A stretch of DNA of 64,000 nt, taken from NCBI GenBank assembly GCA_947626065.1, contig CANQQT010000005.1, positions 12,252 to 76,251 of the forward strand, written 5' to 3'. This DNA comes from an uncultured Clostridia bacterium. GTDB lineage: Bacteria > Bacillota > Clostridia > Oscillospirales > CAG-272. The notes beneath the pieces are model-generated. The model searched no databases. It had not been told where the DNA came from and saw only the letters and a list, made by a program, of their open reading frames with translations. Below are positions 25,573 through 57,735 of the stretch, in pieces. The translations under genes and the position numbers were made by a program. Every line of letters starts with the position of its first letter. The stretch's first letter is position 1.

Positions 25573-28500
25573 TCAGCGCCCCGCGCGTTTCTTAATCCGG
25601 TCGGCTACCGCCGCAAGTCCTACGACGCTGAGAAGCGCGGTGAGGATTGCAGGAAGAACGCCGATTCCCTTCTCTCCGGTGTCGGGAGATCCGGAATCCT
25701 TGGCCTTGTAGACGTAGGTCACTTCCACGTCGCCGTTCATCGTGCCCTTGGCTTCGCCCACTACGTGATCCAGCTTGTAGCCCTTGACGGTCGCGGCCTC
25801 GGTCTGATACGGATCGCCCGCGTTGACCTTCGTCACTACCGTGTCGGCAATCTGCTGATTGTTGGTATCCACGAAACGGACGGTGAGGGTATACTGCACG
25901 TGCTTGTAGACGAAGACGATTTCGGTATCTCCGTCCACCGTGCCGGTCGCCGCCGCGCCCTCGGCGTGGTCGTAAACGTAGTTGGCCACGTTAATGGGAG
26001 TCGCCTCGTAAGCGTCTCCGGCCTTCACGGTCTGCGTCTTCGGGTCGGCGATGTCCTTGCCGGCCTCGTCCACGTAACGGACGGTGAGGGTGTACGGGAT
26101 GCTCTTGTAGACGAAAATCACTTCGGCGTCGGCTTCAAGCGTACCGGTGGTCGGTGCGCCTTCGGCGTGGTCGTAGGTGTAGTGCGGAATCGTGTACGGC
26201 AGAGCCTGATAGGACTCTCCGACCTTCAGGGTCTTCACCGTCGGCTCGACGATGTCGTTTCCTTCCTCGTCCACGTACCGGATCGTGAGGTCATACTCCA
26301 CGGTCAGGCCGGTGAGGGTGATATCCACGTCTTCGGTGCTCAGCGGCTTGCCGCTCTTGTTGCCGTCCTCGGTGGTTTCTACCGTGAGGGTGGTGGTGTA
26401 GTCCTCGTTGATCTTCGGCTCGTAGCTGAACACGGCGTTCATGACCACTTCGTTCATGGTCTCGGCGTCAGCGTAGCCCGCATGGATGGAGCCTGCGTCA
26501 AAGGGCTCCTCCGCGCTGGACAGCACCGCCGTCGTTTCCAACCGCAGGAAGGTGAGCACCGACGGATCGTATTTCAGAACGAAGTCGCCGTTTGTGCTTT
26601 CCTTGGCGCGGATCGGAACGATCACGGTCTTGGTTTCGGGATCGACAAGGACGCTGTCGCTGGGATTGGGCTGAACCTGTACCTCAATAGAGTTCAGGCT
26701 TCCCGCCGTCGTGCCGGGTTTGACGGTCACGGCGGGTTTGGCCGTGGCGGAGGCGTTTTCTCCGATTTCCACCGTGGTTACGGCGGCCGGATTCTTCAGC
26801 GACTTCGCGCCGACGGCGTGCGTAGTGCTTCCCGCACTGCTTCCCGTACCGCTTCCGTCATCGCCGGTGATGGGCTCTCCGGCGTCAACGGCGAAGAGAC
26901 AAGCCGGCCAAACGTCTGCTGCGGTCTGGTCAAGCGCATAGGCGCTGTAATAGGGGTCTCCGCCGTTTTTGCTCTCGGTGTATCTCAGCTGATACAGATA
27001 GGCGCAGTTGTACCCCTTAAAGGAGAGGTAGGGATTGCCGTCGTTTCCGACAACCATCGAGCAGTAAGGCTCGCCCCCTTTAGGGTAAGCGCCGAGGGCT
27101 CCCAGCGTGGTTTCATAGCGCTCGTACATCAATCCGTACATCTCGTATTCGTCGTCCCAGTAGATGTAGAACTTCCAGAGGGTACCCGCGGTGTCGAAGG
27201 AGTAGAGGCAGACGTCTCCGCCGACCATCACGCCGTCTTCTCTCTCAGCCTGCCATTCTTCGTCAACAGCTGCGACGGTGAGCAGCCACATTTCGTCCTC
27301 ACCGATGGCATCGGCAATCTGCCAAGCCACGCTCTGGAATCCGTCGGGCTGATAGGGGCCGAAGAGGTTTCCGGCGTTGACGGCGAAGATGCCGACCTTC
27401 GAGCTTGCGATATCCCACATGATACCGGGGCCGTTGCCCTTCCAGTTCCAAGGGCCGTCCACCGGGGTTCCGTCGGCGGCAAACTCATAGAGCATACCGG
27501 TGGTGTCGGTGAGATAGTAGTGATCACTTCCGTACTTCTGCGTAGCGTTGACCGGGTTGGTGGCCAGCGCGACGCCGGTTTCGATGGTACGATTTCCGAA
27601 GTCCCATTTGAAGAGACGCGGAACGTAATCGTTGTCGCTGAGGATACCGGTGGCGGTTCCGGGGATGATGTAGACGGTGACGTCAACGGTCGCCTCCACC
27701 TCGTTGTTCATGTTGGAAATCGCCCGGAGGGTGGTGTGGCCGATCGATTTTGCGGTGACAAGGCCGTTTGCGCTCACGGTGGCGATGTCGTCATTGTCCG
27801 ACTTCCAGGTGATGCTGCGGTCGTCGAGCTCCGCCGGATGGGCGATGGCCTTGAGGGAAGCGGTAGTGTCGGTCAGCATGGCCAGCTCATCAACGGGAAT
27901 GTGGTACGGCACACCGGCATCGCTTCCCACTTGGTAAATTTCCACCGATTCCACATCTTCCGGCGCGCACAGTTTATCCACATCGCAGAAGAAACGGTAG
28001 TGTGTAAAGTTGCCAGCATAGTCTACGGCTGTCAAAACATATACGCCGGCGAAGTCACCGTAAGGATACCCATAGTCATCGAATAACCACTTATCTTTCG
28101 GAAGATACTCAAACGAAAGGTATTGATCCATCCACACTTCCGAACCCGGGCCGTACTGTTCAACAAGCGGCCCCCTGTCCATCGGAGAAATGGGAATCCA
28201 TTCGCTGTCCAGATCGTCGTTGAGGTGCAAAATCACATTACTGATGTACTGATTGTCCTGAACTCCGTAGAGAAGTTCAAGGACTTCATAATCCGGCCAA
28301 CCAGAGACATAGGCACCCTCATAGTCGTCATATAAGAATTCCGGAGGCGTCAGGTCCACGGTGAAGGTGGTTGAGAGGTAAGCACCCTTGCCAAGCTCGC
28401 CGTTGTCAAGGTCTCCGTCGGTCAGGGCGTCCCAATTGTAGTTTCCGTCCTCATCGGCGTAGTACTCAGGAGCCATGATCAGGGAGAGCTTGATTTTGTC

Positions 28501-31500
28501 TCCTTCTTTCAGAGGTTCCCCTTCGTAGTCGGTGATCGTCCAGTCGATCGGAACGGTGCTGACGGTGTTGAACCATCCGCCGCTGGAGCCCGGCACGTAA
28601 TAGGCGCCGTCCTCCGCCGACAGCTCTTGACGGTAATAGACGGTTTTGCCGTCCTCGCTGGTCACCTGAATCACTCCGGCACCGGCGTTGCGAATCAGCG
28701 CGTAGTGGTAGTATTCCAGACGCATATTGCCGGAGATGGCGTTGCGCTCGGGATAGTAGGTGAAATAGCCGTAATCATCAACGTCAATATCCTGCGGATT
28801 TCCGTAGTAGGGGTAGAGCTCGCTGTGGTCGTCGAGGGCGAGGCTGATATCGAAATAGTTGTAGACAGCGGAACTCCAACCTTCGTCGCCACCGTTTATG
28901 TTAGAGTTGCCCAAGTAGGGGGTACGGGTGTCGCCGGTTCCGGTGTCATGCTCGATCATCGAGCCGACGTCGTACATCGAAGCGTCCGTCCAGTTGCCGT
29001 AGAAGCCCAGCACCGGGATGCTCAGCTCCGGAGGAATCGCGCCGTCATCGGAGGCCAGAGGGTTGGCAAGGAGGAAGGCCTCGATATACGCGCCGTTGGG
29101 ATAACTCTGAGAAATGGTTTGTCTGTCCTGCTCAGACAGGGTGATCGTGACCTTGACTTCGGTCTCGCCGTTTGCGGGAACCTCCGCGCAGGTACGGTCC
29201 TTGGTCAGAAGAATGTGCACGTCGTGGGTATCGACGTCGCCGTCCTCATCCACGTCCATATCCTCTGTGCAGTGGGTGATTTCGGTGCCTTGGATCACGT
29301 AATCCAGCAGGAGCTGGGCGTCCTTGCGGTTGAATTCGCCGTCGCCGTCAAAGTCGTAACGCAACAGGGAATCGTCGCCCACCGGCTTGCCGTCGATCAG
29401 GAAGACCACGTCGGGGGAGAGGTTCGCCGTATACTGCATCAGGTTCTGACCCCGCACGGCCTGCGTGAAGACCGCCGCGTCGAGATCGTAGTACTGTGTG
29501 ACGGAGGAGAGGTTGTGGAGCGTGAAGGTGATCTCGTACTTTCCAACCTTCTTGATATCGTCGCCGAGCTCTACCTTGACCTTGCCGTCCTCCTGTCCCT
29601 TGACGGTGATATACACCGGGGAGGAGATGGCCGCGTCAACGTTGGCAAGGCCGGCGCCCTGTTGGATGACCGGATAGTACCGACCGCTTGCGTCCTTCAT
29701 GGGCTTCGCGGTGCTCATCATCAGCGACTGGGTCAGGCCCCGGACGTTTAAGTCCTTGGCTTTGACTCCCTGATCGCGCAGGTACTGCTGAATCAGCGCG
29801 ACCATACCGGTGATCTGGGGAGCGGCCATCGAGGTTCCGCTCATGGTCTCATAGCTGGAGCCGTCGGGAGCAAGGCCGTTGACGGAATAGATGTTTCCGC
29901 CGGGGGCGGTGATCTCAGGCTTCAGGCTGAGGTCGCCGGGGGCGCCCCAGCTCGAGAAATCGCTCATGGTGTAGGAGCTACTTGAAGTGTAGTCCACCTC
30001 GGCGGGGGTAGCGCGGAAGGTGATCGTACCGGAGTTGATCTCCGCCGGTATGCCGCCGTTGTCGTAACAATATTGCAGAATGGCCAGACCGACGCTGTTC
30101 TGCACGGTCGCCACCGGGATGTGGCCGGTATAGCCGGTAAGGTCGGCAATGATGTTGCTGTTTTCGTAGTTGACGATAATCACGCCGACAGCGCCGAGCT
30201 CCTCGGCCATCTGTACCTTGTGGAGCATCGAGGTGGGTGTCTTTTCATCGATCATACCGCCGCGCCAGCAGATGACGATGTTGCCCTTGGCTTTGCTTCC
30301 GAGGGCCGCGAACATTTTATCCTCGGTGCCGGGAGCGGTACCTTCGTTGACGGTTCCGGGCTGGAGGATGTAGAAGGTATAGTCGGTTCCCTGTCCGCCG
30401 TTCTTATCAAGCGTGGCGAGATGGGGGTTGCCGTAGGAGGTGTCCTCAAGGTAACGGTACTTGTTCCCGTTGACGGTGAACTTCATACCGACGGTTCCCT
30501 GATTTTCTACCGACGCAACGGTGAGGGAATTGCCGTAGCTTCCCGGCTCGCCGCCGGTGTGGAAGTTGACGCCGTCGGAATAGAGGTTTTTGGGAGCGGA
30601 GGAATCGGCCCACGCGCCGGAGTTACCTGCCGAGATGACGACGACAGTCTCGCTGTCGACCAGCGATTTCATCAGGTTGTCGTAGTAAAGGTTCGGGGTG
30701 GACATACCGGGGTTGGAGCCGCCGAGGGAGAGGTTGACGGCGTCGGCCTTCAGCCAGATGGCGTCCTCAATCGCGGCCACGCAGTCGGAGTCGTAAGCAC
30801 CGCCGCCCTTACCGAAGACCTTCATGACCAGAATCTGAGCGTCGGGGGCGTTTCCGACGACCTTCACGGTTTCGAGGGCGTCCTCATAGACGCCGTCCTT
30901 GTCGGAATCGATCAGACGGTTGGCCGCCGCGATACCGGCGACGTGAGAGCCGTGCTCGCTCTGGTTGTCGTTGTCGTGAGTGACGTCGAAGGAATAGTCT
31001 ACGTAGTTATAGCCGAAAGGAACCTTGGCGTTTTTGTAGACCTGCTCGATCTGCTCGGCGGTGACGCCGCGCGTGGCGATGTTCAGCTTGTCCAGAACGT
31101 CGAGGACGTCCTGCGCCTGCATCAGCTGAGCCGTCTTTCCGGTCTTGGTCTCCCAGCGGGAGATCGATTCCAGAAACGCCTCGGGGGCAAAGGACTGGTG
31201 GTCGGTGTCAAGGCCGGTGTCGATGATGGCAATACGGCTTCCCGCTCCGGTATATCCGGCTTCCCAAGCCACATCCGCGGAGTTCATGCCCTCGGATACC
31301 GCCATGTTGGGCACTTTCTCCTCGCTTACCTCCGTCTTATCGGGGGTATACTGCCGTTCCTCCACGACCTGCTCGACGCCGGGAAGCTTCTCGATGTCGG
31401 AAATCAGACCGCGGCGGATGTTGACAGAGATCACGTTGGCGGCAACCGTCAGGTTCCACACCACGTCCAGCTTACCGCCGGACAGGACTTCTTCTTCAAT

Positions 31501-31845
31501 ATCGCCGATGAGCGCGTTCTGCCTGTTGAGCAAAACGTCGCGGTAAGCGATCGCCTGGACGTTGTCCGCGATGTTGTCCGCGGAGTATCCGGCCTCAAGA
31601 AGAGAGTCGGAATCCAGAACGATGGACGCCCGCACGATCTCGTTGGGATCCTTGTCCAGCTTGGAGCCGGAATCCCTTGAGGGGGTCGTGGAGCTTCCGG
31701 AGGATTCCACTGTTTCCAGACGGAATCCGTGTGCAAAAAGCAAGCCTTCGATTGCCGCGTTCAGAACAATGCCCGTCGCCATGACCAGCGTCATCAGCAG
31801 GGCGAGTCCGCGCCGCATCCAGGTCTTGCGCCGTGAATGTGCCAT
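25573..31845 (-). CDS. Cell-envelope subtilisin-family (S8) serine protease, 2090 aa, wall-anchored multidomain
   Basis: N-terminal signal/TM segment. Catalytic residues are D209 (AIIDTG), H298 (EHGSHVAG), N408 (SAGNSG) and S672 (SGTSMAAP). A PA-like insert lies between His/Asn and Ser. There is a dockerin-like EF-hand pair at aa 831-880, a Big_2-like segment, three MucBP-like repeats, and a C-terminal SPDTG-TM-KKRAGR tail. Confidence 0.9.
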   Translation of the reverse strand: MAHSRRKTWMRRGLALLMTLVMATGIVLNAAIEGLLFAHGFRLETVESSGSSTTPSRDSGSKLDKDPNEIVRASIVLDSDSLLEAGYSADNIADNVQAIAYRDVLLNRQNALIGDIEEEVLSGGKLDVVWNLTVAANVISVNIRRGLISDIEKLPGVEQVVEERQYTPDKTEVSEEKVPNMAVSEGMNSADVAWEAGYTGAGSRIAIIDTGLDTDHQSFAPEAFLESISRWETKTGKTAQLMQAQDVLDVLDKLNIATRGVTAEQIEQVYKNAKVPFGYNYVDYSFDVTHDNDNQSEHGSHVAGIAAANRLIDSDKDGVYEDALETVKVVGNAPDAQILVMKVFGKGGGAYDSDCVAAIEDAIWLKADAVNLSLGGSNPGMSTPNLYYDNLMKSLVDSETVVVISAGNSGAWADSSAPKNLYSDGVNFHTGGEPGSYGNSLTVASVENQGTVGMKFTVNGNKYRYLEDTSYGNPHLATLDKNGGQGTDYTFYILQPGTVNEGTAPGTEDKMFAALGSKAKGNIVICWRGGMIDEKTPTSMLHKVQMAEELGAVGVIIVNYENSNIIADLTGYTGHIPVATVQNSVGLAILQYCYDNGGIPAEINSGTITFRATPAEVDYTSSSSYTMSDFSSWGAPGDLSLKPEITAPGGNIYSVNGLAPDGSSYETMSGTSMAAPQITGMVALIQQYLRDQGVKAKDLNVRGLTQSLMMSTAKPMKDASGRYYPVIQQGAGLANVDAAISSPVYITVKGQEDGKVKVELGDDIKKVGKYEITFTLHNLSSVTQYYDLDAAVFTQAVRGQNLMQYTANLSPDVVFLIDGKPVGDDSLLRYDFDGDGEFNRKDAQLLLDYVIQGTEITHCTEDMDVDEDGDVDTHDVHILLTKDRTCAEVPANGETEVKVTITLSEQDRQTISQSYPNGAYIEAFLLANPLASDDGAIPPELSIPVLGFYGNWTDASMYDVGSMIEHDTGTGDTRTPYLGNSNINGGDEGWSSAVYNYFDISLALDDHSELYPYYGNPQDIDVDDYGYFTYYPERNAISGNMRLEYYHYALIRNAGAGVIQVTSEDGKTVYYRQELSAEDGAYYVPGSSGGWFNTVSTVPIDWTITDYEGEPLKEGDKIKLSLIMAPEYYADEDGNYNWDALTDGDLDNGELGKGAYLSTTFTVDLTPPEFLYDDYEGAYVSGWPDYEVLELLYGVQDNQYISNVILHLNDDLDSEWIPISPMDRGPLVEQYGPGSEVWMDQYLSFEYLPKDKWLFDDYGYPYGDFAGVYVLTAVDYAGNFTHYRFFCDVDKLCAPEDVESVEIYQVGSDAGVPYHIPVDELAMLTDTTASLKAIAHPAELDDRSITWKSDNDDIATVSANGLVTAKSIGHTTLRAISNMNNEVEATVDVTVYIIPGTATGILSDNDYVPRLFKWDFGNRTIETGVALATNPVNATQKYGSDHYYLTDTTGMLYEFAADGTPVDGPWNWKGNGPGIMWDIASSKVGIFAVNAGNLFGPYQPDGFQSVAWQIADAIGEDEMWLLTVAAVDEEWQAEREDGVMVGGDVCLYSFDTAGTLWKFYIYWDDEYEMYGLMYERYETTLGALGAYPKGGEPYCSMVVGNDGNPYLSFKGYNCAYLYQLRYTESKNGGDPYYSAYALDQTAADVWPACLFAVDAGEPITGDDGSGTGSSAGSTTHAVGAKSLKNPAAVTTVEIGENASATAKPAVTVKPGTTAGSLNSIEVQVQPNPSDSVLVDPETKTVIVPIRAKESTNGDFVLKYDPSVLTFLRLETTAVLSSAEEPFDAGSIHAGYADAETMNEVVMNAVFSYEPKINEDYTTTLTVETTEDGNKSGKPLSTEDVDITLTGLTVEYDLTIRYVDEEGNDIVEPTVKTLKVGESYQALPYTIPHYTYDHAEGAPTTGTLEADAEVIFVYKSIPYTLTVRYVDEAGKDIADPKTQTVKAGDAYEATPINVANYVYDHAEGAAATGTVDGDTEIVFVYKHVQYTLTVRFVDTNNQQIADTVVTKVNAGDPYQTEAATVKGYKLDHVVGEAKGTMNGDVEVTYVYKAKDSGSPDTGEKGIGVLPAILTALLSVVGLAAVADRIKKRAGR
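25699..26298 (-). repeat. Three tandem 66-67 aa MucBP-like repeats within the protease
   Basis: The pattern Y(D/T)LT(I/V)R(Y/F)VD...G(E/D).Y......(Y)..DH..G...G......E(V/I).(F/Y)VYK occurs three times. Confidence 0.75.
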
Positions 31846-34498: not shown

Positions 34499-34716
34499 GA
34501 TTTTTCCGCGTTTTCGTGCTAAAAAATGAGATGAAAAAAACGGGGAAAATTTACGTTTCAAAAAATATTTTTTCGACCCTTTCTCAAAGATTTTTCCGCA
34601 TTTTTGCGTCAAAAAAAGGATGAAAAATCGGACAAAATTTTCGTTTCAAAAATATTTTTCCGGCCCTTTCTCAAAAATTTTTCCGCATTTTTACGCGAAA
34701 GAAAGAGCGAAAAAAG
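34499..34716. repeat. Tandem repeat of about 87-90 nt (two full copies plus a partial copy; a degenerate copy lies upstream from 34408)
   Basis: Copy A is 34499..34588, copy B is 34589..34675, and copy C runs from 34676. The shared core is GATTTTTCCGCATTTTTGCG...CGTTTCAAAAATATTTTTC.G.CCCTTTCTCAAA. Confidence 0.75.
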
Positions 34717-34820
34717 GCGGCTTTCTCGCGGTCTTCCGCGCTTTTGTCACGGAAATCCGGCCTTCGGCGCCTCCCTTCTCTCAAAAATTCCGGGAGGAGA
34801 AAAATTCCCCGCTTTTCCTC

Positions 34821-34849
34821 TTGCATTTTCACGCAGAGTGTGGTATAAT
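34821..34849 (+). promoter_or_regulatory. Promoter of the znuCB-like operon
   Basis: TTGCAT, then 17 nt, then TATAAT. Confidence 0.75.
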
Positions 34850-34852
34850 CTG

Positions 34853-34875
34853 AATTTGAGAATCATTTTCAAATT
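34853..34875. promoter_or_regulatory. Fur-family (Zur-like) operator candidate
   Basis: AATTTGAGAAT-C-ATTTTCAAATT is an 11-1-11 inverted repeat with one mismatch. It starts 4 nt after the -10 box. The core GAGAATCATTTTC resembles a Fur-type box. Confidence 0.55.
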
Positions 34876-34885
34876 TGAGGTATCT

Positions 34886-35584
34886 ATGTCGCTGATCGCC
34901 TGTGACCGCCTGACCCTCTCCTATGACGGGAGGCCGGTTCTTTCGGAGCTTTCCTTTGCCGTCGAGCCGGGGGAATATCTCATCATCGTCGGGGAGAACG
35001 GCTCCGGAAAAAGTACGCTTATCAAGGCCCTTCTCGGGCTGAAAGCCCCCTCCGCCGGGCAAATCGTCTACGGGGACGGGCTGAAAAGCCGGGAAATCGG
35101 CTATCTTCCGCAGAGAATCGAGCTGCAAAAGGACTTCCCCGCCTCGGTGCGCGAGGTCATTCTCTCGGGCTGTCTGAACCGGCACGGCCTCTTTTCCCGC
35201 TACAGCGAGGCCGACCGGAGAGACGCCGCCTTTCAGGCGGAGCGCCTCGGCATTGCCGGGCTGAAAAACCGGAGCTTTTCGGAGCTTTCGGGAGGACAGC
35301 AGCAGCGGGTGCTTTTGGCGCGCGCCCTCTGCGCGGCGAAAAAGATGATCCTTCTTGACGAGCCGGCGGCGGGACTTGACCCGGAGGCCACGGCGGAATT
35401 TTATGAAATTTTAAAGAAGCTCCACCGGGAGGGTGTCACCGTCGTCATGGTCTCCCACGACCTGCTCGCCGCCGTCCGCTATGCCTCGCGGATTCTTCGG
35501 ATCGGAAACGGCGGCTGTGCCTCCTTTTCCCCGGAGGAATTCCGGAAAACCCTTTCGGGAAGCGAAGGGAGGGCCTGCCCGTGA
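34886..35584 (+). CDS. znuC: Metal (Zn/Mn-type) ABC transporter ATP-binding protein
   Basis: Starts MSLIACDRLTLSY. Walker A is GENGSGKST, the signature is LSGGQQQR, and Walker B is ILLDEP. I chose the start at ATG 34886, because the track ORF extension from 34604 runs through the repeats. Confidence 0.85.
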   Translation: MSLIACDRLTLSYDGRPVLSELSFAVEPGEYLIIVGENGSGKSTLIKALLGLKAPSAGQIVYGDGLKSREIGYLPQRIELQKDFPASVREVILSGCLNRHGLFSRYSEADRRDAAFQAERLGIAGLKNRSFSELSGGQQQRVLLARALCAAKKMILLDEPAAGLDPEATAEFYEILKKLHREGVTVVMVSHDLLAAVRYASRILRIGNGGCASFSPEEFRKTLSGSEGRACP

Positions 35585-36426
35585 GCGCTTTTCTTTCCTC
35601 TCTTCGGGAGATGTTCTCCCTTTCCTTCATGGTCTACGCGCTTCTATCCGGCATTTTTATTTCGGTCTGCGCTTCCCTGCTCGGCGTCAGCCTCGTGTTG
35701 AAGCGCTTTTCGATGATTGGGGACGGGCTTTCCCATGTGGCTTTCGGAACTCTTGCCGTGGCAACGGCCATGAACGTCGCCCCGCTGAAGCTGTCGGTTC
35801 CCGTCGTCATCGCCTCCGCCTTCCTGCTCCTCCGCCTGAACGAAAAGGGGAAGCTGAAAGGGGACGCCATGATCGCCCTGATTTCGACGAGCTCCCTCGC
35901 CGTCGGCGCGATGGCGGTCTCCCTCTCCTCCGGGATGAACATCGACATTTACAATTATATGTTCGGGAGCATTCTCACCCTCTCGCGGGGGGACGTCCTT
36001 CTCAGCGCCGCCCTCGCCGCCGTGGTGATTCCCTCCTATCGGATTCTCTACAACAAAATTTTCACCGTCACCTTCGACGGGGACTTTGCGCGAGCCACCG
36101 GCATCCGAACCGGCCTGTATGACACCGTTCTCGCGGTCTTCACCGCCCTGACGATCGTCCTCGGAATGCGCTTTATGGGGACGCTCCTCATTTCGGCGCT
36201 TGTCGTCTTCCCGCCGCTCACCTCCATGAGGCTCTTCAAGAGCTTTCGCGGCGTGGTGCTCTGCTCAGCGCTTCTCCCGGTCGTCAGCTTCCTGTCGGGG
36301 CTTCTTATCTCCTACTTTTTCTCTACCCCGCCCGGCGCCAGCGTCGTCTGCGTCAGCCTTCTCCTCTTCCTCCTTTTCTCCCTTCTCGGAAAGATCGTCC
36401 GGCGAGAGAAGAAGCAGGAAAAGTAG
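35581..36426 (+). CDS. znuB: Metal ABC transporter permease (ABC-3 family)
   Basis: 281 aa, multi-TM. Contains KRFSMIGDGLSHVAFG. Its GTG start overlaps the znuC stop (GTGA). Confidence 0.85.
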   Translation: MSAFLSSLREMFSLSFMVYALLSGIFISVCASLLGVSLVLKRFSMIGDGLSHVAFGTLAVATAMNVAPLKLSVPVVIASAFLLLRLNEKGKLKGDAMIALISTSSLAVGAMAVSLSSGMNIDIYNYMFGSILTLSRGDVLLSAALAAVVIPSYRILYNKIFTVTFDGDFARATGIRTGLYDTVLAVFTALTIVLGMRFMGTLLISALVVFPPLTSMRLFKSFRGVVLCSALLPVVSFLSGLLISYFFSTPPGASVVCVSLLLFLLFSLLGKIVRREKKQEK

Positions 36427-36642
36427 AACCGGGGCCGAATTTCGGAAGAAGGCGATTCTTTTTTCCGTTCCCAAACGGGACGGCAAGGGGCTTGCCTTCT
36501 TTAATAAATTTTCTACATCCTCCAAAATTCCGCGTCATTATAGACAAAGTCTGCTTTTCTGATATCGGGAAAATTATCTATCGAATACCCAAGCGGAAGC
36601 CATTCCATATCAGGACTTCTTCTCCCGTTGCCTACGAAAAAA

Positions 36643-51117: not shown

Positions 51118-52191
51118 TTATCCGCGAGGATCTCTTGCCGCTTCCTCGCAGTTCTTCACGACGTCTTCGTAGTTCTTGCCCGACGGGAGGATGGTCGCCA
51201 TCTTTCCGTCGCTGAGGCTGAACTGCGTCTTGTCGCCTTCCACCGTCACGTTGTAAACGGTGCAATTCTCCACCGAGGAGGTGGCGTTGTAGATACGGGA
51301 GGTGATGTAACCGAGCGTATTCACGCTTCCGCCCTTGACAAAGGTGATCTTGCTGTCGTAAACCCGGCAGTCGGTCGCCGTCACGGTCACGTCGTTGCTC
51401 GCGAAGGCGCCGACGATGAATCCGGCGAAGACGGGGCTCTGCTGATGGGTTTCCGGCACGTCGATGATGATTTCCTCATTTTCGACGGTCACTCTCGTCA
51501 CCGAGCCGCTGTTGATGACCGAGAAGAGGCCGTAGAAGCTTCCGTACTGCACACCGAGGTGCGCGGCCTTGGAGCCGGTCACTTTGAAATTCTTCACGGT
51601 GTGGCCCTGTCCGTCAAAGTTGCCATTGAAGGAGGCGCTCATACCGATCGGGAGCCATTCCTGCCCGTTCAGGTCGATATCGGCGTCGAGCAGAACCTTG
51701 TTCCCGTTGAAGTTGTTTCCCTTGATCACGTTGAACTCGTTGTAGCCCTCCTCGTCGGTGAGGTCGCCGTCCCCGTCGGTGTCGACGATGCTGATTCCGG
51801 CGTCGTCATAGTAAACGGATTTGCCGTTTGCGACGAGGTTGGTGAGGTAGGCAAGCCCGGCGAGATCGTAAGCGGTCTTGATGGAATAACCGTCGGTGCC
51901 GTTGCCGCTCAGATACCAGTCAAAGGCCATATGAATCCCGTCGTAGGGAGTCGTTACGTCAAAACCGGTTCCCGCCGGTTCGGTCTCGCTCGGTTCGGTC
52001 TCACTCGGCTTGGTCGCCGCGTCGGTGGCGGCGTCGGTGGCCTTGTCGGATTCGGCGGGCGTCTGCGCCTGCGTTCCTGCGGCCTCGGTTCCGGTGGTCT
52101 CCCCACCGTTTCCGCCCTTATTACAGGAAGCGAGAAGCAGAATTCCCATCACCATGCAGAGGGAGAGAAGAATGGCAATAAGCTTTTTCAT
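51118..52191 (-). CDS. Surface lipoprotein, paralogue 1 of the GLUG-motif-like family
   Basis: Starts MKKLIAILLSLCMVMGILLLASC (lipobox) after AAGGAG. Contains DADIDLNGQEWLPIG, FNGNFDGQGHTVKNFKV and YGLFSVINSG. Confidence 0.8.
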   Translation of the reverse strand: MKKLIAILLSLCMVMGILLLASCNKGGNGGETTGTEAAGTQAQTPAESDKATDAATDAATKPSETEPSETEPAGTGFDVTTPYDGIHMAFDWYLSGNGTDGYSIKTAYDLAGLAYLTNLVANGKSVYYDDAGISIVDTDGDGDLTDEEGYNEFNVIKGNNFNGNKVLLDADIDLNGQEWLPIGMSASFNGNFDGQGHTVKNFKVTGSKAAHLGVQYGSFYGLFSVINSGSVTRVTVENEEIIIDVPETHQQSPVFAGFIVGAFASNDVTVTATDCRVYDSKITFVKGGSVNTLGYITSRIYNATSSVENCTVYNVTVEGDKTQFSLSDGKMATILPSGKNYEDVVKNCEEAARDPRG

Positions 52192-52314
52192 GTTCAAATA
52201 CTCCTTTTTGTAAAAAGGCGGTGCCGCGTCCCGGGGAAAACCGTTCAGCGGCACAGCCAGCCGTTTGCCGCTCCGGAAGGGCTCGGGGGAGTCCTTCCGG
52301 AAGCGAATTACTTT

Positions 52315-53382
52315 TTATTCCGCGTAGGGGTCTCTGGTGAGAACGACGCAGTCCTTCACGCAAGCGGCAAAGTCTCCGCCACCGCCAACGGCGCCGACGA
52401 ACTGATTTTCGCAGATCGAGTACTTCGACGCATCGGCGTCGATCTTGACGTTATAAACTTCGCAGTCGGAGACGAGGCACTGAGCGGAATGGAGGTTACC
52501 GGAGATATAGCTGACGAGAGCCTGCTCGAGCTTACCGGTATTCTCAATCTTGATGGTCCAGTTGTAGACGTTGCAACCGGTGATCCGGTTCGTGCCGTCG
52601 CCCGCGCAGTTGGCGACCACGCCGCCCAGAGCGGCTCCGCCGCTCATGTGAGACTCGGGGTTGCCGAGAGTCGTCTCAAAGTTGTTGAGGGTCAGGTCGG
52701 TGATCGTCGCGCCGTTGATACATCCGAAGAAGCCGTAGTAGCAACCGAGGCTTGCGCCGGAGGTGTGCTTGGCTTCCTCTCCGCGAATCTTGAAGTTGGA
52801 AACGGTGTGTTCATTGCCGTTGAAAACGCCCTTGAAGGAGGTACCGACACCGATAGGCGTCCAGTAGTGGCCGTTCAGGTCGCAGTCAGCGTCAAGATTG
52901 ATGGTACAGCCGTCGAACTGAGAACCCTTGACAGCGTTGAACTGATTGTAGTTCGACTCGTCGTCGACACGACCGTCGCTGTTGGTGTCGGTGAGGAGCA
53001 TATAGCTGTCGTCAAAGTAGATGGTGACCTTCGTTCCGGCGGCGTGAACCAGCATGGTAAAGCCGACCAGATCGTAAACGTTCTTCAGCGTGTAGGTGGT
53101 GGTGGTGTTTTCAAGATACCAACCGAAGGAGGCGTTGATGCCGTCATAGGGCTGCGTGGTATCGAAGGAGGGAGCGGGGGGCTCGGTCACTTCCGCTTCG
53201 GTCGGAGCGGCCTCGGTAGCGGCGTCGGTGGACTTGTCGGATTCGGCAGGATTCTGCGCCTGCGTTCCGGAGGCCTCGGTTCCGGTGGTATCTCCGCCGT
53301 TTCCGCCCTTATTGCAGGCGACAAGCATCACGGAGCCCAGAACCATAAAGAGGGCGAGAAGAATAGCTGTCAGTTTTTTCAT
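52315..53382 (-). CDS. Surface lipoprotein, paralogue 2 of the same family
   Basis: Starts MKKLTAILLALFMVLGSVMLVAC (lipobox). Contains DADCDLNGHYWTPIG, FKGVFNGNEHTVSNFKI and YGFFGCINGA. The start could instead be ATG 53406. Confidence 0.8.
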   Translation of the reverse strand: MKKLTAILLALFMVLGSVMLVACNKGGNGGDTTGTEASGTQAQNPAESDKSTDAATEAAPTEAEVTEPPAPSFDTTQPYDGINASFGWYLENTTTTYTLKNVYDLVGFTMLVHAAGTKVTIYFDDSYMLLTDTNSDGRVDDESNYNQFNAVKGSQFDGCTINLDADCDLNGHYWTPIGVGTSFKGVFNGNEHTVSNFKIRGEEAKHTSGASLGCYYGFFGCINGATITDLTLNNFETTLGNPESHMSGGAALGGVVANCAGDGTNRITGCNVYNWTIKIENTGKLEQALVSYISGNLHSAQCLVSDCEVYNVKIDADASKYSICENQFVGAVGGGGDFAACVKDCVVLTRDPYAE

Positions 53383-53556
53383 GATTTTCTTTGCCTTTTC
53401 AGGCATCCTTTCTTATTTTGGCGGGAAAGCGCCCGGCGCTGTGCCGGTGAGATCCGCGCCTTTTTTTCCGCCCGGGCGTCCCGAAAGACGCCCGGTGCGG
53501 TAAGAATCAGGGATTGACGGGGCCGCCGCAATCGGTCGCCCGTCATGCGCCTTTAC

Positions 53557-54654
53557 TCAGCGGCGCTTTTTGCTGGAAACGAAACCGCAGGTGACAACAC
53601 CGGCAAGAAGCACGGTGGCAACCGAGACGGAAACCATATCCGCAGTCGAGGGGCTTCCTCCGGGAGTCGTCGCGGGCTTATATTCCTCGGTCAGGGAGTT
53701 GCCGTATTCCGCGGCCAGATAATCATTCTTATAGGACGCCGTGGATCCGAACAGCTTGTTGCCCGAGCGAAGAAGCTTGCAGCTTCCAAGCTCCTGCGTT
53801 TCCTTGAATCCGTTGATCTTTACGTTCGTCAGCGTGCCGACGCCGGAATCATTTTCCGGAGAAGGCATACCCATGATCGCACCGCCGCGGATGTCGCAGT
53901 TGCCGTCTTCGGTGGAATTATAGGTGTATACCAGATTGTTGATGGTGACCTTGTCGATGGTAGCGGCAGCCGACCAACCGACAACAGGGCCGGCCATGAG
54001 CGTGCCGGTAGCCTTATTGTCTGCCGTCGTTCCCTTTTTCCCGCCCGTAGCCATGATGGTTACCTGATCGAGGGTGACGTTCTTGAACGTCGCCTTATTG
54101 AAGTAACCGAAGAGGCCGACCGAGATAAAGCGGTCGCTCATGGTAACCTTCGTGCTGTCAAGATAAAGGTTCTTGATGGTATGGTTTTTCCCGTCGAAGG
54201 TTCCCTTAAAGGACGCCTTGGAGCCGCCGATCGGTCTCCACTCTTTTCCGGGGGCTCCGGCAAGATCGATGTCGGCGCCGAGCTCCACGGTTTTGCCCTC
54301 GAAGGCGTCGGTGACAAAGTCGAGCGAACCGGCCGCGTTTGCGGTGGACCCTTCGAGAATCAGATTCCCGGAAGCGTCATAATACAGCTTGTCGAGATCC
54401 GCGCCTTTGTCCGTGTTCTGCGGACGAAGAGCGGCGTCTGCCGACCCGACCAGATAGCTCAGTCCGAGCAGCTCCGCCGGAGTCTTGACCGTGAAGGTGG
54501 TTGCGCTTTTTGCCACACCGTCAACGTACCACTTCACGTTGGCGGTTTTGCCGTCCCAGCCCGCCGCTGAGGTCGGCAGAGCGAAGAGGACGCTGAATAC
54601 CGACAGGACAAGGGTAAGAGCCAGAATCACGCTGAGTTTTTTTGCCTGTTTCAT
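53557..54654 (-). CDS. Secreted surface protein, paralogue 3, with a C-terminal SPSTAD-TM-KKRR tail
   Basis: Signal peptide ...FALPTSAA/GWDGK. Contains GADIDLAGAPGKEWRPIG, FKGTFDGKNHTIKNLYL and VGLFGYFNKA. AAGGAGA RBS. Confidence 0.85.
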   Translation of the reverse strand: MKQAKKLSVILALTLVLSVFSVLFALPTSAAGWDGKTANVKWYVDGVAKSATTFTVKTPAELLGLSYLVGSADAALRPQNTDKGADLDKLYYDASGNLILEGSTANAAGSLDFVTDAFEGKTVELGADIDLAGAPGKEWRPIGGSKASFKGTFDGKNHTIKNLYLDSTKVTMSDRFISVGLFGYFNKATFKNVTLDQVTIMATGGKKGTTADNKATGTLMAGPVVGWSAAATIDKVTINNLVYTYNSTEDGNCDIRGGAIMGMPSPENDSGVGTLTNVKINGFKETQELGSCKLLRSGNKLFGSTASYKNDYLAAEYGNSLTEEYKPATTPGGSPSTADMVSVSVATVLLAGVVTCGFVSSKKRR

Positions 54655-54720
54655 TGCTTGTTTCTCCTTTAAAATAGATTTTTTATTTTGCACCCGCGCA
54701 CGATCTCCTGTGCGTCGGGA

Positions 54721-54754
54721 CAAAACCGAAGGAAATGGGAAACCGCCGTTTCCC
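54721..54754 (-). terminator. Weak terminator after the 981-aa gene
   Basis: Minus sense reads GGGAAAC-ggcg-GTTTCCC followed by ATTTCCTTCGGTTTTG. Confidence 0.4.
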
Positions 54755-54789
54755 GGGACAGGGACTCTTTCACGCGCTTTCGCGCCGGT

Positions 54790-57735
54790 TTATCTCGCGC
54801 TCTTCTTTCTCAGGCGCAGGATTCCCAGGCCGGAAACCGTGCCGACAAGGAGAATGGCGACGGGGAGAAGAATGAAGTCTGCGGTCGCGGGGGCCGAGGT
54901 CTTGGTGTTGACAAGCACGTAGGTGCTGAGGTGATCGGTCACAAAGGACACGGTCTTTCCGTCCGCGCTCATCGTCGCCTTCATATCGGTGACGCTTCCG
55001 TCTTCCTCAGCGCGGTAAACCGCGGCCTCCCAGCCATCCGGAACCTTGAGGGTGACTTTGATCTGCCCGTCGGGCTGAACCTCGGCGCCGGTGGTGAGAT
55101 TCTTGAGGGTGACGTCATAAACGGCGGCGTCCTTGAAGGTTTGCTCGGCGGCCTTTTCGACGGCGGCAAGAGCGTCTTTCGCTTCCTGCTTCTCTTCGGT
55201 CACCGGTTCAACCGTCAGAACAACTTCTTCGTCGTAGTCGGCTTTGGGGTCGGTGTATTCCGCAACCGCGCCGCTGGTCTTGTCTTCGTACTTGTCGAGC
55301 TCCACGTAGTTCGGGTCAGCCGCTCCGCAGACGGTGCAGACGCCCTTCTCGAAGGTGTGCGCCGTTTCGGCGGAACGGGTTCCGCAACCGTTTGCGCATT
55401 CGTGCCAATGCTTCTCGGCGTCGCGGCTCCACTCGGTGGTGGCGAAGACGTGCTCGGTCTTCTCGGTTACCCAGCTGTCCTTGTCGATTTCGTTTTCGCC
55501 CTTATCGTCCGCAAAGTATTTTCCGCAATTATCGCAGGTATAATACTTCGTGTTGCCTTCCGCCGTGCAGGTCGCGTCTTTCGCGGCGGTTTCGGTCAGC
55601 TTGTGACCGGTGGCCTTCAGGACGGTGTCCTTCCTGGTCACCTCTTCGGTGCATTCTTCATCGGTATAATACTTGCCGTCGCATTCGCCGTCTTCCGCGG
55701 TGCAGGTCCAATACTCGATGTTGCCGTCTTCGGTGCAGGTCGGATCCTTCTTTTCCACCTTGTTCGGCACATGGGTATGCTTCAGGCGTCTTTCCGGTTT
55801 CACCGCGCCGCAGGCGCATTTCGAAATCTCATATTTGGGGTTGTTCGAGTCTGTTTCCCATACCCACTTATGAGCCTCTTGTTCCGCTACGGTCAGGTCG
55901 CAGGTCTCGCAGGTAACCTTGTGGGTCTCATTGTCTTGATTGTCCGTGAGAATCAGCTTGTCATGCTCTGTTTCGGCGCTCTTGTAGCCGCACGCTTCGC
56001 AGGTCTGATAGTGCGCGGTGTGGTCGTCATTCTGCGCGTATTTAAGGTCGCCCGTATGGTCTGCCTTGACGATCTCTCCGCTGCAGACGGGGCAAACCTT
56101 CCAGTGGTTGGTAGCGTCGCTCTTCCACTCGCCGCTGTCGTCATGATTCTCTGTCACGCTATAACCGCATTCGCAGGTTCCGGTATGTTGCGTCTCGCTG
56201 GTCTTCTCATAGCTCAGAACGTGCGCGGTCTCGTTGATCTTGACTTTGCACAAGGTGCAGAGATTCCAGTGACCGGTTTTATCTTCATAGGTCAGCTTGT
56301 TATCCGAGACATGGTCTTCCAGATCGGTCATATATTGACAAATATCGCAAAGCTGATAATGCTGATCGCCGGCTGGCTTGTAAGTCAGCGTGTGGGTGTC
56401 CTTGTTCATCTCGGTGTGGCATTCTGTACACTCGTTCCAGTGGCTGGTGCCGTCGGTGTGCCATTGGCCATCCGAAGTATGCGGGATCATCTTGATAACG
56501 GTCTCCTCGAAGTTCTCATATTTCTCGGTACCGTCAACGTTCTTGTAGTATACGCCTACACAGTTCGGATCCGCACTACGGCAAACCCAGTACGCCTCAT
56601 TTCCCACTTCCGTACAGGTGGCGTCTTTCTTCTCTACGGCGATCATTTCGTGCTTGTGTACGTAGTTCGTTTGCACAGTGTTATTGCAACCGTCAGTGTT
56701 GAAGCACTTTTCAAGGAACGTGCCGGGCGTTGATGTGTGTCCAAAGAGATTCTTTGAGGAAGTAGTTACGCTTCCACCGCTGATTTTTACGCCATTGATA
56801 AACACATCATGAATATTTTGAGGATTTCCGTACTTCCCAGTCTGTGATTTGTTAAAATCACCTTCACTATCGATATATCCGATAAATCCTCCACACCGGG
56901 GATTAGATGAGAACGGGGTGCTATTATCAATGGTAATTGTCAGGTTATTCACCGTAACATTTGCAAATTTCGCCTGATTAATAATGCCGCAAATTCCACC
57001 CGTCATAGTATTGTGGTCTGATTTAGTAGTAACTTTAATGGTTTCCTGATCCAATGTCAAATTTTTGACGGTTCCACTGGGATCAATATAACCAAAAAAG
57101 CCGACCATATATGCAGTTTTATTTCCATACGAAACATAGCTGCTGTTAATGTCAATGTTCTTGACGAAATGATCCGCTCCATCAAAAGTTCCTTGGAAGG
57201 GCGCACCGTCATAAATGCCGATAGGAATCCACGGCTTGCCTTCAAGGTCGATATCCGCCGTCAGCTTCACCGTCTTTTTTGTGAACCAAAATTTAATGTC
57301 AAAATTAAGCGTTGCCGCATCCTCAGGAATCTCACTGGCAATCTCGTCTTCCTTCACATAAAGTCTACCGGTGTCCGCGTTATAGAGAAAATGATCGGTA
57401 CACTCTGACGGGAGCCTATCCTTACGGAAGTTATCACTTGTATTATTTGGCTTTCCAGAAGCATCAGGTTGCCTCGATGTCCGGGCGCAAGCATTGACGA
57501 GATAAGAGAGCCCCAACAAATCCGCTGGTGTGGAAATCTCGAATTCGCTGGCATCTGGATTATCCAAATACCATTTGATATTCGGCTTTCCGTCCCATGT
57601 TCCCTCCGCTGTCGCATCTACGCTCGGCTCTGCAGAGGTGAGCAACGGGAAGAGGAACAGGCTCGCGGCAGTGGACAAAACCAAAACCGCTGCCAGCAAG
57701 GCGACAATGCCTTTTTTGCCTAACAATCTTTTCAT
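54790..57735 (-). CDS. 981-aa surface protein, paralogue 4: GLUG-motif-like N-terminal domain, a Cys/His-rich mini-module array, and an APATAD-TM-RKKSAR tail
   Basis: Signal peptide present. Contains TADIDLEGKPWIPIG, FQGTFDGADHFVKNIDI and VGFFGYIDPS. Residues 344-804 carry about ten H-x3-C-x2-C-x8-12-H units. AAGGAG RBS. Confidence 0.85.
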   Translation of the reverse strand: MKRLLGKKGIVALLAAVLVLSTAASLFLFPLLTSAEPSVDATAEGTWDGKPNIKWYLDNPDASEFEISTPADLLGLSYLVNACARTSRQPDASGKPNNTSDNFRKDRLPSECTDHFLYNADTGRLYVKEDEIASEIPEDAATLNFDIKFWFTKKTVKLTADIDLEGKPWIPIGIYDGAPFQGTFDGADHFVKNIDINSSYVSYGNKTAYMVGFFGYIDPSGTVKNLTLDQETIKVTTKSDHNTMTGGICGIINQAKFANVTVNNLTITIDNSTPFSSNPRCGGFIGYIDSEGDFNKSQTGKYGNPQNIHDVFINGVKISGGSVTTSSKNLFGHTSTPGTFLEKCFNTDGCNNTVQTNYVHKHEMIAVEKKDATCTEVGNEAYWVCRSADPNCVGVYYKNVDGTEKYENFEETVIKMIPHTSDGQWHTDGTSHWNECTECHTEMNKDTHTLTYKPAGDQHYQLCDICQYMTDLEDHVSDNKLTYEDKTGHWNLCTLCKVKINETAHVLSYEKTSETQHTGTCECGYSVTENHDDSGEWKSDATNHWKVCPVCSGEIVKADHTGDLKYAQNDDHTAHYQTCEACGYKSAETEHDKLILTDNQDNETHKVTCETCDLTVAEQEAHKWVWETDSNNPKYEISKCACGAVKPERRLKHTHVPNKVEKKDPTCTEDGNIEYWTCTAEDGECDGKYYTDEECTEEVTRKDTVLKATGHKLTETAAKDATCTAEGNTKYYTCDNCGKYFADDKGENEIDKDSWVTEKTEHVFATTEWSRDAEKHWHECANGCGTRSAETAHTFEKGVCTVCGAADPNYVELDKYEDKTSGAVAEYTDPKADYDEEVVLTVEPVTEEKQEAKDALAAVEKAAEQTFKDAAVYDVTLKNLTTGAEVQPDGQIKVTLKVPDGWEAAVYRAEEDGSVTDMKATMSADGKTVSFVTDHLSTYVLVNTKTSAPATADFILLPVAILLVGTVSGLGILRLRKKSAR

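Follow-up and report, generated by a model that had tools for sequence, protein, structure and literature searches.

Zinc-finger-like Cys/His sites are textbook intracellular motifs: what, then, would a long run of them do in a protein that appears to be exported and held at the cell surface? This question is raised by P0001, a 981-residue predicted surface protein encoded within a 64,000-nucleotide stretch of DNA (hereafter the window) from an uncultured Clostridia bacterium of the order Oscillospirales (contig CANQQT010000005.1). The Cys/His array of P0001 is, as judged by sequence comparison, homologous to ZBD1 and ZBD2 (also named CTD2 and CTD4) of the Thomasclavelia ramosa IgA protease. 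From this homology, and by analogy with that enzyme, residues 358–815 likely form a metal-stapled stalk of 13 ZBD1/ZBD2-type beta-sheet modules, presumably holding Zn(II), with metal sites probably located at the joints between modules.

Organization of the Cys/His array

The pattern H-x3-C-x1-3-C-x7-10-H has eight exact matches in residues 344–804 of P0001 (exactly nucleotides 55324–56706), against a mean of 0.07 and a maximum of three in 20,000 composition-preserving shuffles of the same region, which holds 32 of the 36 Cys and 27 of the 33 His of the protein. A preliminary description of this DNA had reported about ten H-x3-C-x2-C-x8-12-H modules here, interleaved with (D/P)(A/P)TCTE.GN..Y(W/Y).C motifs. 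The count was essentially right and every quoted string is present, with the H...C..C...H strings at residues 432–448, 459–475, 489–505, 544–560, 575–591, 605–622, and 776–793, and those of the second kind at residues 371–386, 664–679, and 720–739. An eighth regular-expression match, HTGTCECGYSVTENH, lies at residues 517–531, and a ninth copy (residues 623–653) is degenerate, its first His being absent and its knuckle reduced to C-x-C. Both kinds of motif do occur, but they alternate only loosely. We split the array into 13 modules, namely three A-type (ribbon) modules, nine B-type modules, and one terminal half-module, in the order A1, B1–B8, A2, A3, B9, half-module:

54790–57735, minus strand: whole gene for the 981-residue surface protein P0001; open reading frame with an AGGAG ribosome-binding site 7–8 nucleotides 5' of the ATG
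56479–56664, minus strand: A1, ribbon-type, residues 358–419; H362-x11-C374-x10-C385-x6-C392 ... H419
55777–56478, minus strand: B1–B8, residues 420–653; eight modules of 26–31 residues in a row, [H]-x10-13-H-x3-C-x1-2-C-x7-10-[H]
55603–55776, minus strand: A2, ribbon-type, residues 654–711; H655-x11-C667-x10-C678-x6-C685 plus an extra C695
55450–55602, minus strand: A3, ribbon-type, residues 712–762; H711-x11-C723-x10-C734-x2-C737 ... H762; aligns to subdomain I of IgA-protease ZBD1
55357–55449, minus strand: B9, residues 763–793; H762 ... H776-W-H778-E-C780-x3-C784 ... H793; aligns to subdomain II of IgA-protease ZBD1 and ZBD2
55291–55356, minus strand: C-terminal half-module, residues 794–815; H793-x6-C800-x2-C803-GAADPNY

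A-type modules follow the pattern H-x11-C-x10-C-x2(or 6)-C, with one His and three Cys, and B-type modules the pattern [H]-x10-13-H-x3-C-x1-3-C-x7-10-[H], in which the bracketed His are common to adjacent modules and each period of about 29 residues contributes two His and two Cys. The boundary His of B1–B8 are residues 419, 448, 475, 505, 531, 560, 591, 622, and 653. Overall, the ligand pattern (H-x11-C-x10-C-x2-C; H...H-W-x-x-C-x2-3-C...H) is present in every module but B8. The half-module extends the array 33 nucleotides past the lower coordinate of the region first described, and is conserved in paralogues from the same genome.

Relationship to ZBD1 and ZBD2 of the IgA protease

No named domain had been known to the authors of the preliminary description, and this holds for the domain libraries: a Pfam scan of P0001 found no family at E ≤ 1 within the array, and an NCBIfam scan found nothing there. 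It does not hold for the literature, where the module was described in 2025. A phmmer search against PDB sequences returned one strong match, 9qa6_A (“IgA protease”, E = 1.3e-16), which is a construct of the T. ramosa IgA protease (IgAse or IgAP, MEROPS M64; PMC12237041, PMC12415215). Residues 710–798 of P0001 (A3 and B9) align to residues 853–944 of this chain, and residues 766–797 align to 1078–1107. A profile built from the nine B modules alone matches the same chain at 906–933 (E = 0.0027) and 1075–1103; its next-ranked matches are C-x2-C-G knuckles of rubredoxins, at non-significant E-values of 0.18–2. A weak match to the TAX1BP1 UBZ (E = 0.1), over “HWKVCPVC”, was also seen among PDB chains.

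In the IgA protease, ZBD1 (E879–T1008; 129 residues, about 110 Å) comprises subdomains I, II, and III, and is named alongside a second segment, ZBD2; AlphaFold models of these ZBDs show three-stranded sheets and place putative zinc sites where the subdomains meet (PMC12237041). The same segments were described elsewhere as CTD2 and CTD4, for which no structural homologue was found, and isolated CTD2 is a fully extended rod by small-angle X-ray scattering, leading to the proposal of a “metal-associated periscope domain” (PMC12415215). Both studies modelled 2His/2Cys and 3Cys/1His zinc sites (PMC12237041, PMC12415215). The A-type module is the counterpart of subdomain I and the B-type module that of subdomain II. 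The module type has been known since 2025 for one protein, as a model only, and P0001 is a further member; what is new with P0001 is the homopolymeric run of eight subdomain-II-type modules, the arguments from ligand substitution and from the absence of Dsb genes, and the scale of the family.

Other family assignments were considered and set aside. PF26743, PF26918, PF27065, and PF27808 are listed for some homologues and are unlikely to model the module, as the module-rich homologues P0015, P0016, and P0102 are without a Pfam hit; PF26743 could instead be explained by the non-module C-terminal domain of P0004. Since several module-rich homologues have no precomputed Pfam hit, it appears that no Pfam model covers the modules. 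An assignment to Tad3 and RYYR-CCHC was likewise rejected: only knuckle-sized parts of these profiles are covered in homologues, and P0001 itself has no match. A search for a Tad3-like solved template turned up none.

Metal sites versus disulfides

Variation among homologues bears on whether the Cys bind metal or form disulfides. Non-conservation of the His and Cys positions had been named beforehand as an outcome that would speak against a metal site; instead, across 44 aligned proteins, the inner His of B modules is conserved at 99% and the two knuckle Cys at 96% and 100%, while the three Cys of A modules are conserved at 96%, 99%, and 98%, and their His at 86%. We then collected A-type modules with ligand-independent anchors (n = 2,050), 83% of which carry H-C-C-C. 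Where Cys is missing from the second ligand position, its place is mostly taken by His (29 cases), Glu (25), or Asp (3), versus Ala (11) or Thr (8), and in one homologue, P0239, His occupies this position throughout. A corresponding ligand-independent expression for B modules gave too much noise to be useful. Replacement by His, Glu, or Asp retains a metal site and is incompatible with a disulfide. In addition, no DsbB, VKOR, or DsbA-like (Thioredoxin_4) gene was detectable in the 94%-complete genome, in a search in which control genomes do score.

Disulfides, which the preliminary description had offered as the alternative, are unlikely because of the odd number of Cys in A modules, the replacement of Cys by His, Glu, or Asp, and the undetected Dsb and VKOR genes. 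The idea that the Cys form structural, metal-free disulfides as in EGF-like extracellular repeats draws on the extracellular location and Cys-richness of P0001 and on the capacity of C-x2-C pairs, in principle, to form such bonds. It fits poorly, however, with the odd number of Cys, three, in the ribbon modules, it does not explain why variable Cys are swapped mainly for metal ligands or why His positions are conserved as strongly as Cys, and it is at odds with the homologous IgA protease, in which no disulfides were seen and the reducing agent dithiothreitol improved behaviour, being needed for monodispersity (PMC12237041). We consider it extremely improbable. The sequence pattern and the analogy with the IgA protease are best read as pointing to structural Cys/His metal sites, and zinc is most likely the metal.

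Another metal, e.g., Fe(II) in a rubredoxin-like setting, Ni, or Co, is very unlikely. The rubredoxin knuckles that follow the IgA protease among the (non-significant) matches of the B-module profile, and the availability of Fe(II) in the anoxic gut, lend this idea what appeal it has. Rubredoxin-type Fe sites are Cys4, however, whereas structural zinc is classically bound in tetrahedral sites of mixed Cys2His2 or Cys3His composition. A structural Cys3-Glu site elsewhere in the IgA protease is zinc-selective by anomalous scattering (PMC12415215).

Predicted fold and location of the sites

An AlphaFold2 (AF2) model of residues 344–810, built from an alignment of 44 sequences, has a mean pLDDT (predicted local distance difference test) score of 65. 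A1 and A2–A3 are predicted as beta hairpins with pLDDT >90 (90–96 for A1), B9 reaches 61–79, beta1 and beta2 strands are predicted in B1, B2, and B9, and none of the modules is predicted to contain a helix. B-B tandems occur in only a few homologues, and the alignment is consequently thin over B1–B8. Weak Foldseek matches of the array include Rpb9-type zinc ribbons (E 0.16–0.9), which fits a remark made on subdomain I (PMC12237041).

Which residues would share a metal ion? The zinc-knuckle reading of the preliminary description survives in part: a metal site is the best hypothesis given the homology to ZBD1/ZBD2 and the His/Cys conservation, but a self-contained knuckle is probably wrong, as the boundary His is shared between modules. 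On balance, models and analogy lead us to favour sites at the joints. In an up-down-up topology, the inner His (top of strand 2) and the C-terminal boundary His (top of strand 3) of one module would meet the C-x2-C knuckle of the next (bottom), giving one 2His/2Cys site per joint, as in both IgA-protease papers (“at the interfaces”, “link the sheets”). Two features of the sequences support this register. B8 is the sole B module without an inner His and also the sole one preceding an A-type module, A2, which has a full ligand set of its own; and a second His (“HWH”) is found in 45% of B modules preceded by a 3-Cys module versus 8% of those preceded by another B module. A register combining the N-terminal boundary His with the in-module ligands is a possible but doubtful alternative.

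The register of the preliminary description, in which the inner His, both Cys, and the C-terminal His of one module bind one metal like beads on a string, seems unlikely, even though its stoichiometry of two His and two Cys per about 29 residues is equally good. The B8–A2 junction could be accommodated, with B8 using H653 and A2 using H655 in its canonical H-x11-C, and the C-terminal His is kept in 15 of 16 B modules without a detectable following module, although module counts at array ends come from related sequences rather than independent ones. On the other hand, such a register leaves H419 and H762, before B1 and B9, without a role, while a His occupies this pre-module position in 97% of B modules after a 3-Cys module and in 76% of those first in an array; it leaves the C800/C803 pair with a single possible His partner; and it draws together an inner His and a first Cys that stand four residues apart on what AF2 predicts to be one beta-strand (QHYQLC, HWHEC), presumably too distant to share a metal. 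It also differs from the sites of the IgA protease, which were placed at interfaces that link the sheets (PMC12237041, PMC12415215).

A widespread module of gut surface proteins

The module is far from restricted to P0001. A word-indexed search retrieved 1,434 proteins at E ≤ 1e-3, and an exhaustive HMMER search over 1.84 billion representatives (clusters at 50% identity) matched 8,662 clusters at E ≤ 1e-3, of which 3,432 also passed E ≤ 1e-10 and 604 passed E ≤ 1e-30; among them are proteins as long as 6,446 residues and with as many as 35 matched stretches. In the same order, 40 of 201 sampled genomes gave a match at E ≤ 1e-5, versus 2 of 301 sampled evenly from the phylum, and a search for related loci with P0001 as the single query protein returned three distant ones. 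At least eight genes of the genome of origin (2.4 Mb, 94% complete) encode modules of this kind. One of their products, P0109 (contig 17), has the same head and anchor as P0001 but lacks B2–B5 as whole modules and carries an A-type module in place of B9; such whole-module differences were seen only between diverged paralogues.

Partner domains in homologues include cohesin, BspA-type leucine-rich repeats, transglutaminase, dockerin, SLH, choline-binding domains, and Flg_new repeats. In homologues, the modules lie between cohesin, leucine-rich-repeat/BspA, or transglutaminase heads and SLH, choline-binding, dockerin, or transmembrane anchors, a mix that would be expected of a generic spacer in surface proteins.

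The C-termini of these proteins also resemble one another. All module-bearing paralogues of the same genome (L002–L005, L011, and L012) end in [AS]-P-x-T-[GAS]-D followed by a hydrophobic helix and a basic tail, with the variants SAPATAD (P0001, window positions 54880–54900), TAPDTSD, TAPDTAD, and SAPSTGD, and many metagenomic homologues end in SSPKTAD, a transmembrane segment, and KKRRKA. These tails look like a variant of the sorting signal, often with Ala or Ser in place of the canonical Gly.

Homologues gather cumulative sub-threshold Pfam matches to zf-C2H2, zf_UBZ, and RYYR-CCHC, and automatic annotation of the module family is likely misleading. Separately, among the module-rich homologues P0002, P0006, and P0003, at least one matches “Tad3” (Type I Thoeris inhibitor) above the Pfam cut-off, over profile positions 66–104 only.

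A candidate metal-stapled stalk

Taken together, the homology and the conserved ligands suggest a mechanical role for the array. Each module would contribute to one structural metal site of tetrahedral geometry, presumably occupied by Zn(II), for a total of about 12–13 metal ions per chain. The modules are single sheets and have next to no hydrophobic core; by pairing the inner and C-terminal boundary His of one module with the knuckle of the next, joint sites would fasten them end to end and so produce a stiff rod. Scaled from ZBD1, the 458 residues would span about 35–40 nm if straight, enough for the N-terminal, beta-helix-like head to clear the wall and whatever surface layers lie outside it and to be held away from the C-terminal membrane or wall anchor. 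The head would probably be ligand-binding or adhesive.

Several observations weigh against this picture. Throughout the module family, the ZBDs of the IgA protease included, folds and metal sites are models only (PMC12237041, PMC12415215). B1–B8, the core of the finding, have pLDDT values of only 27–67, and Foldseek found no match to the array in the PDB at E ≤ 0.001. Pairwise identity between modules is only 15–43%, and Tandem Repeats Finder detected no DNA-level tandem array in the gene; this is not a classical, rapidly length-variable periscope array, and the low identity together with the missing DNA repeat indicates that the array is old. Under some registers, no more than three ligands are obvious for B8 and for the terminal half-module. 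The boundary His is conserved at both array ends, and counts in first and last modules did not separate the registers. Finally, the stalk role is read from the architecture alone, the head being without an assigned function.

The modules might bind metal and yet serve chiefly for something beyond spacing, as a zinc-dependent switch, an extracellular metal buffer, or an adhesive surface. In favour of this are the roughly 13 sites in each chain and the eight or more such genes in a 2.4-Mb genome, and SasG and Aap offer a precedent for zinc-dependent surface rods. The window also contains, at about 34600–36430 and some 20 kb from the P0001 gene, a putative operon for zinc uptake (znuCB-like) preceded by or containing a Zur-like box, although nothing but the common 64-kb window ties it to P0001. 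Fully coordinated Cys/His sites usually hold zinc too tightly for exchange, however, and the heads and anchors with which the modules are combined are many and unrelated, as would be expected of a generic spacer; we regard a primarily active role as improbable, and a structural stalk as the better account. Slightly more improbable still, to our mind, is a metal-gated version of the stalk, in which zinc would lock the joints and hold the head out at about 35–40 nm, and in which zinc-free, coreless modules would unfold and let the head retract. If gating did occur, the roughly eight genes per genome would tie either the display of surface proteins or a zinc reserve outside the cell to the zinc supply, possibly in concert with the presumed Zur/znu system about 20 kb away, e.g., under host zinc withholding.

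Head domain, anchor, and gene neighbourhood

Outside the array, P0001 has the architecture of an exported protein, with a signal-like N-terminus, a head (residues 36–343) preceding the array (residues 358–815), and a C-terminal membrane or wall anchor:

57631–57735, minus strand: signal-peptide-like N-terminus, residues 1–35; basic n-region, hydrophobic core, and TSA/EP
56707–57630, minus strand: head domain, residues 36–343; “WDGK..KWY”, “F.G.FDG..H.v.N”, and GLUG-like repeats
54904–55290, minus strand: acidic Cys-free linker and beta-rich domain, residues 816–944, ending ...FVTDHLSTYVLVN
54793–54903, minus strand: anchor, residues 945–981; SAPATAD followed by a hydrophobic helix and RLRKKSAR, resembling a sorting signal but with Ala for the usual Gly

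The signal-like peptide consists of MKRLLGKK, a hydrophobic run, and TSA/EP. This N-terminus and the SAPATAD/helix/RLRKKSAR tail, both sequence features only, agree with the secreted, wall-anchored protein that had been proposed. Residues 816–944 gave only a weak match to DUF4330 in the Pfam scan (E = 0.05).

The head (residues 36–343) is beta-rich in its AF2 model (predicted template modelling score 0.76). Foldseek found no match to it in the PDB at E ≤ 0.001; the non-significant matches are mostly right-handed beta-helices, including pectate lyases, tailspikes, GH110, the binding region of an SRRP, and a “putative IgA1 protease” from Bacteroides. The best database relatives of the head are proteins of Barnesiella intestinihominis sorted by the type IX secretion system (T9SS), at 36–39% identity over 35–42% of the head. 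Four tandem genes at 51118–57735 share the “WDGK..KWY ... F.G.FDG..H” head, with the Cys/His array found only in the last, 981-residue one; the P0001-type head is carried by the three genes directly downstream (51118–54723) and by P0109, and one short head-bearing product has a lipoprotein-type N-terminus (LVAC). GC content is 41% at 56700–57300 (head residues ~146–345) versus about 57% in the rest of the window, the three downstream paralogous genes included. A possible history of the head is horizontal acquisition and fusion to a stalk that is native to this lineage.

Among the products of neighbouring genes are BNR/Asp-box proteins, glycoside hydrolases, a solute-binding protein, and a 2,090-residue S8 protease with MucBP, which suggests a surface locus for glycan foraging or host interaction. 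The protease (25573–31845, minus strand) is a large surface subtilase with Peptidase_S8, PA, Fn3-like, Big_2, and three mucus-binding MucBP domains.

Implications

In anaerobic gut bacteria, Cys/His sites would be what extracellular rods are built from, in thousands of gut-microbiome surface proteins that are currently labelled “hypothetical” or, spuriously, C2H2, UBZ, or Tad3. Pfam-type models of the A and B modules would improve the annotation of adhesins, scaffoldins, and surface enzymes of gut Clostridia. With eight consecutive 2His/2Cys modules, P0001 is a clean test object for zinc binding, site register, and metal-controlled rigidity, questions that apply to the therapeutically studied IgA protease too.

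Comparison with known systems

The closest known system is the IgA protease. P0001 shares with its ZBD1 and ZBD2 both sequence homology and an identical His/Cys pattern, and in both proteins the modules are extracellular and lie between a head and a C-terminal sortase-type anchor. The protease, by contrast, has 3 + 2 subdomains in a fixed I-II-III order with an Ig-like barrel between them, whereas P0001 has 13 modules, eight of them consecutive and of subdomain-II type, an arrangement not found in PMC12237041 or PMC12415215; nor is the head of P0001 an M64 protease.

In overall design, P0001 resembles the stalks of periscope proteins and fibrillar adhesins (SasG/Aap G5-E, SHIRT, Rib; PMC8201768, PMC9704523), with apparent single-layer beta-sheet modules that have little hydrophobic core and would form an end-to-end rod, an N-terminal head projected from a wall anchor, and paralogues that differ by whole modules. 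Its modules are nevertheless without sequence or fold relationship to those of periscope stalks. Periscope arrays consist of near-identical DNA repeats giving strain length variation (PMC8201768), whereas the modules of P0001 have diverged to 15–43% identity. The mode of metal binding would differ as well: in Aap, zinc bridges two chains through His, Asp, and Glu, while the Cys/His sites of P0001 would be fully coordinated within one chain.

The likeness to C2H2 and UBZ fingers (PF00096, PF18439) lies in two Cys and two His per tandem unit of about 30 residues and in the C-x2-C knuckle. The spacing in P0001, however, is not C-x2-4-C-x12-H-x3-5-H, no hidden Markov model of these families matches at E ≤ 1, and the modules are predicted to be all-beta, without a recognition helix, extracellular, and not nucleic-acid binding. 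With the TFIIS/Rpb9-type zinc ribbon, the A-type module has in common a predicted beta-hairpin ribbon with a C-x2-C-G knuckle, but it has only one true C-x2-C knuckle, the other two ligands being a lone Cys and an N-terminal His, and the structural match is non-significant. EGF-like disulfide repeats, finally, are marked by an even number of invariant Cys and an accompanying oxidative-folding system; P0001 differs from them on these counts.

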